A DNA stretch of 64,000 nucleotides, from positions 2,080,001-2,144,000 of the forward strand of contig OZ251992.1 of assembly GCA_965246885.1 (NCBI GenBank), written 5' to 3'. Below are positions 1-4,960 of this stretch, piece by piece (the first letter of the stretch is position 1; every line of letters begins with the position of its first letter). A model generated the notes under the pieces. It worked only from the letters and a program-made list of their open reading frames with translations. It was not told the origin of the DNA and did no database searches. The position numbers were made by a program, and so were the translations under genes. Source of the stretch: Abditibacterium sp. (GTDB lineage: Bacteria; Armatimonadota; Abditibacteriia; Abditibacteriales; Abditibacteriaceae).

Positions 1-51
1 GGCGGAGCGGAGTTACAATTTCTTCTTGCGCTTTTCCAAGAGGCGCACTTT

Positions 52-123
52 GCCGGTGTAGCTCAGGGGTAGAGCAGCTGTTTTGTAAACAGCCGGTCGG
101 GGGTTCGAATCCGTCCATCGGCT
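52..123 (+). tRNA. tRNA-Thr(UGU)
   Basis: Cloverleaf: acceptor GCCGGTG/CATCGGC, anticodon arm GCTGT-TT TGT AA-ACAGC, T-loop GGTTCGAATCC; no encoded CCA. Confidence 0.96.
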
Positions 124-162
124 TCGCCAAGACTTGTTTGGGCGAAGAACTTTGAAAAATTA

Positions 163-245
163 GCAAGGGTGGCCGAGCGGTTAATGGCAGCAGACTGTAA
201 ATCTGCCGAGGTGACTCTACGGCGGTTCGAATCCGCCCCCTTGCA
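163..245 (+). tRNA. tRNA-Tyr(GUA)
   Basis: Acceptor GCAAGGG/CCCTTGC, anticodon arm GCAGA-CT GTA AA-TCTGC, long variable arm, GGTTCGAATCC. Confidence 0.96.
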
Positions 246-258
246 GTACACTTTGGCC

Positions 259-813
259 GTGCCAAAGTGCCACCGATGCAGTTCGCATTTCCCAAACACG
301 CTCACTTTGGAAGGACGTGTGCGCTATTTGGGGAATCGCAAGTATTGTTTGGAGTGTTCGCCTTTTGGCGGGCACAACACGCGCAGAGTGGAAGTTGAGC
401 GGGCCTCTACTTGCGCGGTTTGCCGGGGAAAGCATCATTTGAAGGGTAATCTCTGCCGCTATTGCACGAATAAAATCGCGCGTTGGCGGCTCAAGTTGGC
501 GATGGTGCGGGCCAAGGGCGGGAGGTGCGAGCGTTGCGGATGGAGTGGCAATCCTGTCGCTTTTGACTTCCATCATGTCGACCCGTCTCTCGAGGAAGTC
601 TCCTTGAACATGGCCACGCAAAGCCGCGTGACGATGTTGAAGGAGTTGGAAAAGTGCATCTTGCTTTGCACGCGCTGTCATCGGTTGGAACACGCGACTG
701 AGAACCGCGTCGAGTTTTGGGAGCAAGTGTTCAACTATCGCGGTGGATTAGAGATAGGGAATAGAGAAGAGTGGGACTTTCTTTTTGAAGGTGTTGAAGA
801 TACGCCTCTGTAG
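259..813 (+). CDS. Zn-finger HNH endonuclease (free-standing, homing-endonuclease-like)
   Basis: CxxC pairs (CHRC, CLEC, CAVC, CRYC), then KGGRCERCG...FDFHHVDP...ELEKCILLCTRCHRLEH HNH core; first plausible start after tRNA-Tyr is GTG 259; stop lies inside tRNA-Thr(GGU). Confidence 0.85.
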   Translation: MPKCHRCSSHFPNTLTLEGRVRYLGNRKYCLECSPFGGHNTRRVEVERASTCAVCRGKHHLKGNLCRYCTNKIARWRLKLAMVRAKGGRCERCGWSGNPVAFDFHHVDPSLEEVSLNMATQSRVTMLKELEKCILLCTRCHRLEHATENRVEFWEQVFNYRGGLEIGNREEWDFLFEGVEDTPL

Positions 814-875
814 TTCAGTGGCAGAACGCTTCCTTGGTAAGGAAGTGGTCACCAGTTCGATTCTGGTCAGAGGCT
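804..875 (+). tRNA. tRNA-Thr(GGU)
   Basis: Acceptor GCCTCTG/CAGAGGC, anticodon arm CTTCC-TT GGT AA-GGAAG, T-arm ACCAG-TTCGATT-CTGGT. Confidence 0.95.
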
Positions 876-921
876 TTTAGTTGAAGCGATTCATCTATCG
901 GATAATTGGAACGAAGAATAT

Positions 922-993
922 ACGGGTATAGTTCAGTGGTAGAACGTCGGTCTCCAAAACCGGATGTCGTGGGTTCGAGTCCTACTACCCGTG
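922..993 (+). tRNA. tRNA-Trp(CCA)
   Basis: Acceptor ACGGGTA/TACCCGT, anticodon arm TCGGT-CT CCA AA-ACCGG; canonical position before secE. Confidence 0.96.
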
Positions 994-1086
994 TCCTCGC
1001 TATAACGAATGTCAGGCGGGCGGCTCTCCTTGGAGGGAGCCGCCGCGTCGGGCGCTCGTTTGGCGTGTGGGAGAGGCAACAATTTC

Positions 1087-1479
1087 ATGGCCATCGTCAG
1101 AACCACACCGAGGGAAACGGAAAGCAGCGACCCTTCCGGCGAAACCCCCTCACAGGGCATCACCCGAAGCGTCGACCGCACCAAGTCAGTCGTCAATCAA
1201 GGCGGGCGCCCGCAAGCGCGTCCGGCCCGCGTGCCCGGTCAAATGAACCGGAGCGCGGCGCAGCAACAAATCGCCGAAGGCGGCGCGCGCCAGTTCTGGG
1301 ACGATACGCTCCTCGAACTCAAGCGCGTCGTGTGGCCCACCAAAGAAGAGCGGGCCGCCGGAACGATTGTGACGATTGGGATGCTCGTTTTCTTTGCCCT
1401 GTTCATCACCAGCCTTGAAGTCGCCGTGAGTCACCTATTTCAGTGGGTGCACATCCTCCCCGCGCCAGTGGGTAAGTAG
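1087..1479 (+). CDS. secE: Preprotein translocase subunit SecE
   Basis: ELKRVVWPT motif plus one TM helix; between tRNA-Trp and nusG; GGAGAGG upstream of ATG 1087. Confidence 0.92.
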   Translation: MAIVRTTPRETESSDPSGETPSQGITRSVDRTKSVVNQGGRPQARPARVPGQMNRSAAQQQIAEGGARQFWDDTLLELKRVVWPTKEERAAGTIVTIGMLVFFALFITSLEVAVSHLFQWVHILPAPVGK

Positions 1480-1569
1480 CGTATTGCTTCCGCGCGGGCT
1501 TGCGCCCGCGTTCTTGCGTCTCTACCGCCGGTGGAGGCGCCGACCTGTCCGCGCTTGGCGGAGGAAATT

Positions 1570-2106
1570 ATGGCGAAACAGTGGTATGCGGTTCACACCT
1601 TTTCCGGTCAGGAAGACAAGGTGCAGCAAAACATCGAGAAACGCTCCGAAGCGGTCGGGCTTCGCACGCGCATTTCGCGCGTCGTCGTGCCGACCGAGGA
1701 CGAGCAACGGATGCGCGGCCAGAAAGTCGTCACGGTGAAGAAGAAAATCTTCCCCGGCTATGTCCTCATCGAGATGGACATGGACGACGAGACGTGGCAC
1801 TTCGTGCGCCAAACCGTCGGCGTGACCGGCTTTTTGGGGCAAGTGACCGGCACGGCGACGCGCCCGACGCCGCTTCGCCCCGAAGAAGTGGACGCCCTGC
1901 TCGGCGAGTCGCTCGGCCTGCCGAAGCTGACCACCATCTTCCATAAGGGAGACCAAGTGTCGGTCATTGGCGGCCCGTTCACCGGCTCGGAAGGGCACAT
2001 TGAGGAGATTAACCCCGAAACCGAAAAGGTGACGGTCTCCATCACCCTCTTTGGCCGCGAGCAACGGGTGCCGCTCGATTTTGCGAACGTGGAGAAGGTC
2101 GTTTAA
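1570..2106 (+). CDS. nusG: Transcription termination/antitermination factor NusG
   Basis: WYAVHTFSGQE, KKIFPGYVLIEM, KOW GGPFTG; GGAGG SD. Confidence 0.97.
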   Translation: MAKQWYAVHTFSGQEDKVQQNIEKRSEAVGLRTRISRVVVPTEDEQRMRGQKVVTVKKKIFPGYVLIEMDMDDETWHFVRQTVGVTGFLGQVTGTATRPTPLRPEEVDALLGESLGLPKLTTIFHKGDQVSVIGGPFTGSEGHIEEINPETEKVTVSITLFGREQRVPLDFANVEKVV

Positions 2107-2154
2107 ACACACTACGCCCCTGCTTTGGCAGTGCGGAGTAGCACATGAAACATC

Positions 2155-2580
2155 ATGGCAAAGAAAGTTACAGGATTCATCAAATTGCAGTTGCCTGCGG
2201 GCGCTGCCGCTCCGTCGCCGCCCGTTGGCCCGGCGTTGGGCCAGCATGGTGTCAACATCATGCAGTTCGTCAAAGCGTATAACGAGCAAACGGCGGCGCA
2301 GACCGGGCAAATCATCCCCGTCGAAATCACCGTTTATCAAGACCGCTCGTTCACGTTCATCTTGAAGACGCCCCCGGCTGCCGACCTGCTCAAAAAAGCG
2401 GCGGGCATCAAGTCGGGCGCGAAGAACCCGCTCAAAGACCGCGCCGGTGCCATCACCGACGTGCAACTGGCGGAACTGGCGCAACTCAAGATGAAAGACT
2501 TGAACGCCAAGGACATCGACGGCGCGAAGAAGATTCTCGCCGGAACCGCCCGCTCGATGGGCATCAAGATTGAGGGCTAA
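2155..2580 (+). CDS. rplK: 50S ribosomal protein L11
   Basis: [24 protein letters not shown]. Confidence 0.98.
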
Positions 2581-2589
2581 CTCAGAACT

Positions 2590-3282
2590 ATGGCGAACAC
2601 ACATGGAAAACGGTTTCGCGCCCTGAGCGAAACCTTCGACGCGAAAATCCAATACCCGCTTTCCGAAGCGGTGGAACTGGTCAAAAAGACCTCGAACGCG
2701 AAGTTCGACGAAACGGTGGACGTGACGGTTGTCCTCGGCATTGACCCGAAAAAGGGCGACCAACAGGTGCGCGGCACCATCACGCTTCCGCACGGCACGG
2801 GCAAAACCCCGCGCGTCGTGGCGGTTGCGCGCGGCGAAGCGGCGACGGCGGCACAAGCGGCGGGCGCCGATTTGGTCGGCGCCGAGGATGTCATCGAGCA
2901 AATCGAGAAGGACGAACTCCAGTTCGACGTGCTTGTGGCGACACCCGACATGATGCGCCTTCTGTCCCGCTTGGGCAAGAAGCTGGGGCCGCGTATGCCC
3001 AACGCCAAGTCGGGAACGGTCGGCCCCAACATCGGGCAGATCGTCTCAGACCGCAAAAAAGGCCAGATCGAATACCGCAACGAACCCAAAGCGGCGGTCA
3101 TTCACTCCATCATCGGCAAGTCCTCCTTCGAGGGCCAAGCCTTGACGGAGAACGCCAATGCCCTCATAGTCGCGCTCAACCGCGCCAAACCGAGCGCGGC
3201 CAAGGGCACATACTTAAAAGCGATTACCCTTTCCTCCACGATGGGGCCGGGTGTCAAAGTGGACGTGTCCAGCCTCCGCTAA
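2590..3282 (+). CDS. rplA: 50S ribosomal protein L1
   Basis: KFDETVD, VRGTITLPHGTGK, SSTMGPG. Confidence 0.98.
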   Translation: MANTHGKRFRALSETFDAKIQYPLSEAVELVKKTSNAKFDETVDVTVVLGIDPKKGDQQVRGTITLPHGTGKTPRVVAVARGEAATAAQAAGADLVGAEDVIEQIEKDELQFDVLVATPDMMRLLSRLGKKLGPRMPNAKSGTVGPNIGQIVSDRKKGQIEYRNEPKAAVIHSIIGKSSFEGQALTENANALIVALNRAKPSAAKGTYLKAITLSSTMGPGVKVDVSSLR

Positions 3283-3297
3283 AGGAAACGAGAACTC

Positions 3298-3828
3298 ATG
3301 GTAGCCAAGAAATACAAAGACAAAGAAGCTCTCGTGGCCGAACTGCGCGAGAAACTGGGAACAGCGACGGCCATCGTCGTCACCGAATATCGCGGCCTCA
3401 AAGCCGGAGACTTGGTGACGCTCCGGCAAGACCTGCGCGGCTCGAACGTGGAACTACGTGTCGTCAAAAACACGCTTCTGCGGCGCGCGAGCGAAGGGAT
3501 GCCGGTTCACGATCTGGCGCTCCAACTCAAAGGCCCCTCCGCCGTCGCAATGGCGTTCGGGGAGCCGACCGACGCGGCCAAGAAACTGGATGACAGCGCC
3601 AAGGCGCTTTCCGCCTTCAACTTGCAAGGCGGCGTCATCGAGTCCATGATCGTGTCAGGCGAACAAGTCGCGGCGATTGCGAAATTGCCCTCGAAAAAGG
3701 AACTGCAAGCGAAAGCGGTCGGCGCCCTCCAAGGCCCGCTCGCCGGATTGGTCTTCACTTTGTCAGGCGTGCTGTCGAACTTCGTCGGCATCCTGCAAGC
3801 GAAAATAGACGCCGAAACCGCGTCGTAA
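3298..3828 (+). CDS. rplJ: 50S ribosomal protein L10
   Basis: EYRGL, VVKNTL, LPSKKEL; synteny. Confidence 0.96.
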   Translation: MVAKKYKDKEALVAELREKLGTATAIVVTEYRGLKAGDLVTLRQDLRGSNVELRVVKNTLLRRASEGMPVHDLALQLKGPSAVAMAFGEPTDAAKKLDDSAKALSAFNLQGGVIESMIVSGEQVAAIAKLPSKKELQAKAVGALQGPLAGLVFTLSGVLSNFVGILQAKIDAETAS

Positions 3829-3903
3829 AACCGGGTTTCAACCTCGCTTAATCTGGTCAGGAGCGCCCTAAGCGACTCCAACTCCTGCCCCGCGAACAAC
3901 ATC

Positions 3904-4296
3904 ATGGCAACAGAAAAGATCCAAGGTATCCTTGACACAGTCGGCGGCTTGTCCGTCCTCGAATTGAACGAACTCGTGAAAGAGTTGCAAGAGCAATGGG
4001 GCGTCACCGCCGCCGTTGCTGCGGCCCCGGCCTCCGGCGGCGGCGGCGGAGCGGCGGAAGCTGCGGCTCCCGCCGAAGAGCAGACCGAGTTCTCGGTCAT
4101 CATCAAAGAAGCGGGCGCCCAGAAGATTCAGGTCATCAAAGCCGTCCGCGAAGTTGTCCCGTCGCTCGGCCTCAAAGAAGCCAAAGACGTGGTGGACGCC
4201 GCGCCCAAGGCCGTCTTGGAAAACGCGACCAAAGAAGACGCGCAAAAGGCCAAAGAAAAACTCGAAGCCGCAGGCGCCGTCGTCGAAATCAAGTAA
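3904..4296 (+). CDS. rplL: 50S ribosomal protein L7/L12
   Basis: [27 protein letters not shown]. Confidence 0.98.
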
Positions 4297-4313
4297 CTTG
4301 GCCCCGGCACTAC

Positions 4314-4343
4314 AAACCCGCCCCCGTCTGGGGGCGGGTTTTT
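4314..4343 (+). terminator. Rho-independent terminator after rplL
   Basis: AAACCCGCCCCC-gtct-GGGGGCGGGTTTTT. Confidence 0.9.
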
Positions 4344-4357
4344 GCGTATATTAAGGT

Positions 4358-4960
4358 GTGTCTCCCGAACAAAAGCAGCGCCGCCAAGCAATTTTCGATG
4401 CGGACTATGAGAATCAATACGCGGTTGTCGAACTCTTGACACGGCATTATCTGGAGGCTTGCCCACGCGATGCTAATGTATACCTGCGGCGCGCTCGCAC
4501 ATTGGCAATGCTCAATCGCCACGCTGAAGCTGAGGGTAGTGTCGAACAGGCGCTCGATGTTATAGCTGATGAGAAACTGATGCCATTCGTCTGGACGGTG
4601 AAAGCGGCGATACTTGAACGCCAAGGCCGGTTTCTGGAAGCAGAACAGGCTTATGTTGAAGCTAATGCTCTGGAACCCAACCAATGCTGGTTGCTGTGTC
4701 TGCTCGCCCACATGACATGGATGGGTGGTGATCTGCCACTGGCCGAGCAGCGATTCCGAGAGGCTTTGGCCGTCGAAGGTGAAGAGCACGACGAAGCCTT
4801 CTACAATTTGGGCGGCGTGTTAGTCGCGCTCGGACGTTTGGAAGAAGCCGCCGACTGCTACCGCCAAGCCCTCGCGCTTTCGCCCGATTACGACATCGCG
4901 CGGGTGCGATTAACCGATGTGGAGCGCGCTTTGGAGTTGCAACGGGAAGCGGACGGGTAG
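4358..4960 (+). CDS. Tetratricopeptide repeat protein
   Basis: TPR motifs such as AFYNLGGVLVALGRLEEAADCYRQALALSPDY; GTG start uncertain. Confidence 0.85.
   Translation: MSPEQKQRRQAIFDADYENQYAVVELLTRHYLEACPRDANVYLRRARTLAMLNRHAEAEGSVEQALDVIADEKLMPFVWTVKAAILERQGRFLEAEQAYVEANALEPNQCWLLCLLAHMTWMGGDLPLAEQRFREALAVEGEEHDEAFYNLGGVLVALGRLEEAADCYRQALALSPDYDIARVRLTDVERALELQREADG

Follow-up and report, generated by a model that had tools for sequence, protein, structure and literature searches.

That free-standing nucleases home between co-infecting phages is established, and HNH genes have been described next to accessory tRNA arrays. Among the closest described systems is the segB gene of bacteriophage T4. 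As set out in PMC2330249, it is a free-standing nuclease gene within a tRNA precursor transcript, and its product cuts tRNA genes and spreads together with the flanking tRNAs. That paper proposes two brakes on SegB, a hairpin at the start codon and the loss of the stop codon when the next tRNA matures, and it proposes a processing-based down-regulation for the nucleases of the T5 tRNA region as well. In T5, the HNH genes of F-TflI (hegC) and F-TflII (hegD) occupy tRNA spacers, with annotated overlaps of 14 and 23 nt with the following tRNA. ORF44 of phage Felix O1 (NP_944863) and gp259 of Bacillus phage Bastille also lie between tRNA genes, the former being annotated as overlapping the 5' end of a tRNA-Ile. 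On the bacterial side, mobile tRNA arrays (all8564 and the L-arrays of Anabaena, PMC8421152; the tRNA array units of Mycobacterium, PMC5966550) link HNH genes to tRNA genes, which these papers propose them to spread or diversify. PMC8421152, PMC5966550, PMC13096335 and PMC3984707 together deal with intronless homing and with HNH or SegB genes that adjoin accessory tRNA arrays. In the open-access full-text literature, we found no report of such genes in chromosomal housekeeping tRNA operons, nor of host tRNA allele turnover beside them, which is not proof of absence.

The window, i.e. the whole stretch of DNA that was analysed, comprises 64,000 nucleotides of the chromosome of Abditibacterium sp. 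(contig OZ251992.1). We refer to its own genome as G000 and to the other genome that carries an HNH gene in the same spacer as G003. The locus has the following features.

14..19, + strand: candidate -10 hexamer TACAAT, a sigma-70-type consensus match only, with a -35 element TTGACA just left of the window
52-123, + strand: tRNA-Thr(UGU) (ARAGORN, Rfam), which does not abut the nuclease gene
163-245, + strand: tRNA-Tyr(GUA) (ARAGORN, Rfam), CCA not encoded, upstream neighbour of the HNH gene
249..269, + strand: perfect 9-bp hairpin spanning the GTG start codon (leader analysis)
259..813, + strand: HNH endonuclease gene, 184 aa, GTG at 259, TAG at 811-813, the stop lying within the next tRNA
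804-875, + strand: tRNA-Thr(GGU) (ARAGORN, Rfam), nt 8-10 of which form the HNH stop codon
921-996, + strand: tRNA-Trp(CCA) (ARAGORN, Rfam)
1087..1479, + strand: secE, first protein gene of the secE-nusG-rplK-rplA-rplJ-rplL cluster

The operon thus reads tRNA-Thr(UGU), tRNA-Tyr(GUA), tRNA-Thr(GGU), tRNA-Trp(CCA), secE, nusG, rplK, rplA, rplJ, rplL, and the conserved protein gene cluster identifies it as a core chromosomal operon. The initial annotation had an HNH open reading frame fill the entire spacer between tRNA-Tyr and tRNA-Thr(GGU) and end inside the latter, a layout with which ARAGORN, Rfam and the ORF coordinates agree. The spacer is 558 nt long, of which a 13-nt leader precedes the gene and the ORF takes all the rest. 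Nucleotides 1-10 of tRNA-Thr(GGU) (804-813) encode the last base of T182, P183, L184 and the stop codon U8-A9-G10. This tRNA gene is the sole intron-free copy in the genome. The annotation had also seen no integrase, transposase or intron, and there is indeed none in 1-4400. Both flanking tRNAs are whole, and the HNH gene lies outside any intron or intein and is hence free-standing. Its own genome holds no second intact copy.

An assembly artefact was rejected because, in two public runs of the same study, contigs match 206-2200 and 334-950 with zero differences and so include the junction. A contig of run X2 joins 239 to 804 via 29 other letters; its likeness is 80% and it may belong to another organism, so we did not score it as an empty allele. 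The promoter matches 11 of 12 consensus positions (1 site vs. 0.4 expected), and the 1.4 kb scanned contain no terminator-like site. As judged from these signals, the promoter likely drives a tRNA-HNH-secE-nusG transcript. The HNH stretch had no match in the RNA runs (shares 0.05-0.07). At 4358-4960 of the window, a TPR gene and not rpoB follows rplL, and the same is found in G003.

The protein begins with two N-terminal modules of paired CxxC motifs, which are followed by a helix, the zinc-bound HNH core (about 87-147) and a C-terminal tail. Twelve cysteines (six CxxC pairs) as well as H105, H106 and H141 are at least 90% conserved among 52 homologs; the homolog alignment also shows H145 to be present, and K132 occupies a position that is Asn in many HNH proteins. 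These residues correspond to the signature of HNH (beta-beta-alpha-metal) nucleases, with a His pair, a second strand and a helix that carries the metal-binding His. Its identification as a multi-zinc-finger HNH protein held up, given the conserved CxxC pairs and histidines and a match to the PHROG 2255 HNH profile (E 7.5e-33) that covers residues 1-150 and includes the N-terminal zinc module. The Pfam HNH score is just under the cut-off (19.4 vs. 21.4 bits), and NCBIfam gave no relevant match. The structure was predicted with a pLDDT of 89.5. When residues 67-147 were compared with solved structures, the best rows were HNH domains, albeit weak ones (Foldseek best E 0.049; VIA Z 4.6, rmsd 2.9, 59 aligned). 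The same part bears a clear likeness to viral models, 46 of which match at E <= 0.001 and are mostly named HNH. The active-site residues are intact and, according to the sequence comparisons, under purifying selection.

At E <= 1e-10, the HNH family has 20,463 cluster representatives, many of which share the HNH part alone. It is found in 279 cultured-phage records, in 38 of 301 genomes of the phylum and in 14 of 26 genomes of the host family, with zero matches among plasmid records; we found no characterised member. Felix O1 ORF44 and Bastille gp259 belong to this family (profile E 3e-31 and 2e-55), but they are phage-encoded, reside in dispensable tRNA clusters and are known by annotation alone. 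Membership was rejected for T5 F-TflI and F-TflII (no significant profile match; E 0.02 against eight sequences), and the gene was rejected as a member of the SegB/GIY-YIG family because the Pfam and PHROG scans give HNH only. SegB, a GIY-YIG enzyme, homes between co-infecting phages, whereas the window gene sits in a housekeeping operon of a bacterial chromosome and is known from sequence. The mobile tRNA arrays are large accessory arrays on plasmids, phages and islands, in contrast to the four-tRNA core operon studied here.

With a probability of roughly 0.7, we interpret this as a homing endonuclease gene, free-standing and from a phage-type HNH family with tRNA genes as targets, that has settled in a SegB-like manner in a spacer within a housekeeping tRNA operon of the chromosome. 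The HNH gene would be transcribed within the tRNA precursor and released by tRNA processing. The zinc modules would bind DNA, and the protein would nick or cut at or in the tRNA gene of an allele that lacks the HNH gene, most likely tRNA-Thr(GGU). Host recombination would then carry out the repair from the incoming copy, either phage-borne or on transferred DNA, copying the HNH gene and some flanking tRNA sequence. After fixation, the gene would decay, and the spacer would be emptied or occupied by another nuclease.

The association of the family with tRNA genes, which the initial annotation had named as a point to check, is strong. After the removal of 22 fragments and 18 short-flank members from 240 non-redundant family ORFs, 200 were counted, and 140 of these have a tRNA gene at most 150 nt away (17/22, 36/54, 41/73 and 46/51 in the four sets). 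By comparison, none of the 25 control PF01844 HNH genes of the same phylum (30 loci, 28 of them non-redundant, 25 with enough flank) has a tRNA nearby, and the genome background is about 1%. The fraction of 140/200 is conservative: among 20 loci in which ARAGORN gave no tRNA, 11 contain a group I intron and one contains a tRNA. The neighbouring tRNAs are of many isotypes and lie on either side and on either strand. At least 10 tRNAs are found nearby in 7 of the 65 genome loci of the family, the number being mostly 0-4. In the nearest outside relative of known context, L201/L205 (tree support 0.79; about 40% identity), the gene likewise extends into a tRNA-Thr(GGU), the setting and the frame being different.

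Group I introns are the classic home of homing nucleases. In three genomes of the host family, an HNH gene of this type lies antisense within a group I intron that interrupts the anticodon loop of a tRNA-CAU gene (G023, L036 1177-1836; G019, L037 1139-1796; G005, L040 1220-1931). Such members point to DNA homing and so argue against an RNA-cutting toxin, which would cleave host tRNA and travel with a resistant tRNA allele as its antidote in the form of an addiction cassette. The distinct alleles of the adjacent tRNAs (see below) would suit such a cassette, and HNH-containing defence systems, e.g. Septu, cleave tRNA-Tyr according to PMC13096335. However, the locus has no partner ATPase or other gene, the many isotypes, sides and strands of the neighbour tRNAs fit poorly, and the fold search places the HNH chains of retrons and Septu far down (Z 2.5-3.1). 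We therefore regard a toxin as very improbable. The known anti-phage HNH systems (Septu, retron and CBASS Cap5) were rejected as well, because here a single gene stands between tRNAs and PADLOC gives weak generic matches only.

Two further arrangements within the family were noted. By eye, the HNH gene of Chloroflexota-type loci (L065, L066, L067, L073, L077, L080, L094, L097 and L114), mostly a double-domain one, follows directly on the 3' side of a tRNA that a group I intron interrupts, and is not part of the intron; this is possibly a collaborative-homing arrangement. In Bacillus phage Bastille (L317 1321-2149), and also in L122, the family HNH gene has a tRNA-Asn gene on either side; this duplication may be the scar of an insertion.

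We searched 25 genomes of the host family with nusG and recovered the operon in 24. The Tyr-Thr spacer holds an HNH gene in two of them (G000 and G003) and LAGLIDADG-like relics in another two, and it is empty (4-100 nt) in the remaining 20. The patchy presence that had been expected of a mobile gene is thus observed. The HNH genes of G000 and G003 are 78% identical, and these are sister genomes in the nusG-rplK tree; the locus L057 has a 79% identical HNH gene in the same operon. The LAGLIDADG-like remnants are a truncated gene of 91 codons with a LAGLIDADG-like motif in G010 (L005 2785-3096) and a 141-nt relic in G002 (L003 611-751). An intact relative of the G010 gene (53%) lies between tRNA-Gly and tRNA-Arg in G013 (L313 1489-1995; 20.4 bits vs. 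a cut-off of 22.5). PHROG 5046 matches the LAGLIDADG-like gene but carries the label HNH, and fragments related to this gene adjoin the tmRNA in G022 (L314).

A second operon, Pro-Gly-Arg, has an HNH gene of the family before tRNA-Pro or after tRNA-Arg in 8 of 13 genomes of the genus. In G000 (G000:C1:123310-123380; L348/L349), the 3' relic of another family HNH gene, its last ~18 codons, directly precedes tRNA-Pro(UGG). At this site, G003 has an intact HNH gene and G012 seems, by eye, to keep a more decayed trace. At other tRNA sites, family members are often frameshifted or relics. The series of full, relic and empty sites at tRNA operons is what one would expect if nuclease genes invade, decay and are lost. 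The selfish free-standing element put forward initially therefore stands as far as its patchy presence (2/24), its link to tRNAs, its intact residues and its relics at two operons are concerned. The accompanying idea that it took the place of a tRNA-Gly, said to occupy this position in many bacteria, had to be abandoned: none of the 24 host-family loci has a tRNA there, and the host tRNA-Gly(UCC) sits in the Pro-Gly-Arg cluster elsewhere.

The same comparison bears on the view that the gene is a passive leftover. A phage or an integrative element with a tRNA attachment site would have left behind the HNH gene along with its own tRNA copies, no chromosomal homing would take place, and cycles of integration would explain the tRNA variation. 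The family is mostly viral, the HNH gene is lower in G+C than its neighbours (GC3 0.63 vs. 0.77-0.80), and an ORF with recombinase-like features, as seen by eye, adjoins tRNA-Arg in G013. Against this, neither a further phage gene nor an integrase nor a duplicated tRNA end is present at the locus, and its gene order is that of the empty relatives. Moreover, purifying selection is not expected of a leftover, the tRNA differences span both halves of the gene and not its 3' end alone, and the same spacer has been used by two unrelated nuclease families. Such a leftover appears unlikely to us.

Between G000 and G003, the HNH gene has a pN of 0.134 and a pS of 0.68 (pN/pS 0.21), and this pS is within the range of nine ordinary genes of the same contig (0.58-0.72). 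Because the pS resembles that of ordinary genes and the carriers are sister genomes, their sequences indicate that the HNH gene was probably inherited in both from a common ancestor, with one insertion and not two. Recent independent arrivals in G000 and G003 are not supported, on account of the same pS. For the gene to be inherited and stay intact, either homing would have to recur within populations or the host would have to profit from it. Long retention under purifying selection is counted against homing, being also compatible with a once-mobile nuclease that is now kept by the host, e.g. for cutting the tRNA clusters of invading phages or competing elements. In support of this alternative, the purifying selection is strong across near synonymous saturation, the gene is placed under a strong stable-RNA promoter (as a consensus match), and many phages carry tRNA clusters. 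On the other hand, just 2 of the 24 genomes have the HNH gene at this spacer, its relatives at other tRNA sites are often frameshifted or relics, the PADLOC matches are generic (E 0.006 or worse), and the translation signals look suppressed. We consider a host benefit improbable, and homing the more probable explanation.

Both brakes that PMC2330249 proposes for SegB are visible at the window HNH gene as sequence features. The overlap of the stop codon with a tRNA is in itself minor, having already been published for SegB and appearing in the annotation of T5 and Felix O1. In the family, 81 members have a co-oriented tRNA at most 150 nt downstream; 39 of these members run into that tRNA, and 42 terminate at a stop codon of their own. 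Of the overlaps of at least 3 nt, 15/38 end at tRNA nt 8-10, where random frames would give 7.0 (P 0.0005); clustering at 50% identity changes these numbers to 10/18 and 4.7 (median P 0.003). The frame with the earliest stop is used in 24 of the 38 overlaps. On this sequence evidence, the stop phase is not wholly neutral, and selection for the shortest read-through of the tRNA is no worse an explanation than a purpose-built switch. The TAG is not a special adaptation of the window tRNA-Thr(GGU), because 16 of 24 host-family tRNA-Thr(GGU) genes have it at nt 8-10, 14 of them without an HNH gene. The loss of an earlier stop followed by fresh read-through is not supported: the C-terminal tail shows conservation up to about residue 176, and the genes of both carriers end at the same TAG in spite of a 12-nt in-frame indel between them.

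Cleavage by RNase P before 804 would yield a non-stop message. A tmRNA is present in the host genome. We consider it plausible that RNase P would limit HNH expression in this way, an idea that is not new, having been proposed earlier for T4 SegB and the T5 tRNA-region nucleases in PMC2330249. At the other end of the gene, homologs begin at the same start codon as the window HNH gene, the 13-nt leader of which contains no Shine-Dalgarno motif. The 9-bp hairpin at 249-269 is matched in stem length by a fraction of 0.0004 of 5000 leader shuffles, and six neighbouring host genes have stems of 2-5 bp. From its sequence, this hairpin is a candidate translation brake. The leader of G003 has merely a 6-bp stem, which uses the tRNA end. 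As a family trait, the start-codon hairpin is not supported (at least 7 bp in 8/143 members; z below -2 in 27/143, with leaders in the family often containing tRNA stems). We propose that little protein would be made, because the leader lacks a ribosome-binding motif, the start codon lies in a hairpin, and 5' maturation of tRNA-Thr would strip the last codons and the stop.

The tRNA-Thr(GGU) of G000 has 20-25 differences to three HNH-free sisters and 13 to G003, and all 21 of its stem pairs are kept. The tRNA-Thr(GGU) alleles that were checked preserve their stems through two-sided changes, with differences in both halves of the gene, and the carriers' allele is closer to those of distant members of the host family (12-17 differences in most cases) than to those of the sisters. 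The tRNA-Trp(CCA) is identical in both HNH carriers and has 11 differences to three HNH-free sisters, and tRNA-Thr(UGU) of G000 has 1-3 differences to the four closest genomes. The tRNA-Tyr of G000 has one difference to the HNH-free G002 and G010 and 10 to the HNH-bearing G003, the tRNA-Tyr of which is nearest to that of G012.

For a wider control, the best 30 of 54-68 tRNA loci in each of four genomes were paired by synteny, so that 30 of 50 G000 tRNAs were comparable, 27 of these with G003. Within these best 30 of 54-68 loci per genome, the four tRNAs that abut a nuclease site in this clade differ between G000 and G003 by 10 (Tyr), 13 (Thr-GGU), 23 (Pro) and 15 nt (Arg-UCU), and the other 23 pairs by 0-8 nt. 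Eight tRNAs have a nuclease match within 200 nt in any of five genomes (Ala being borderline); compared with the rest of these best 30 of 54-68 loci, they vary more with P 0.001 for G000/G003 and 0.018 for the five-genome means, in one clade and with operon tRNAs that are not independent. Some nuclease-free tRNAs also vary over the five genomes (mean differences of 9.7 for Met and 7.0 for Val). In the Pro-Gly-Arg operon, the tRNA-Pro type of the HNH-bearing G003 is common to the HNH-free G002 and G010, which argues against a simple cassette of nuclease plus tRNA. The initial annotation had tRNAs serve as homology arms; the allele patterns would fit this at the Thr/Tyr operon, and do not fit it cleanly at Pro-Gly-Arg. 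As for a donor of the window tRNA alleles, an exact-pattern scan of viral contigs found 0, and a phage BLAST gave generic tRNA-Trp matches only.

These differences hint that the nucleases may overwrite host tRNA genes. A more far-reaching version, that at least two unrelated free-standing nuclease families cycle through housekeeping tRNA spacers and overwrite single-copy host tRNA genes with foreign functional alleles at each homing, is a tentative one, to which we give somewhat less than an even chance. If true, this would be a natural gene drive, and selected core tRNA genes would be the fastest-changing stable RNAs of these genomes, which could alter susceptibility to tRNA-cutting toxins and tRNA-targeting integrases. 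The turnover of host tRNAs would explain why some tRNA genes are in conflict with species trees, and a cycle of invasion, decay and loss in a core operon with such turnover would extend homing to the cellular translation machinery. What is new here, suggestively and as read from sequence, is the core chromosomal setting, the series of full, relic and empty alleles with two nuclease families in one spacer, and the hypervariable adjacent tRNAs (in one clade). The five closest genomes offer natural occupied, relic and empty alleles.

Elsewhere in the operon, a small ORF between tRNA-Thr(GGU) and tRNA-Trp resembles, by eye, ribosomal protein L33 in 10 host-family genomes (L013, L015-L022 and L024); it is absent at 876-920 of the window, in all 13 genomes of the genus and in G014. 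The operon of G011, G009 and G004 (L011, L012 and L014) has a tandem pair of different tRNA-Trp(CCA) genes, which are 16-18 differences apart.
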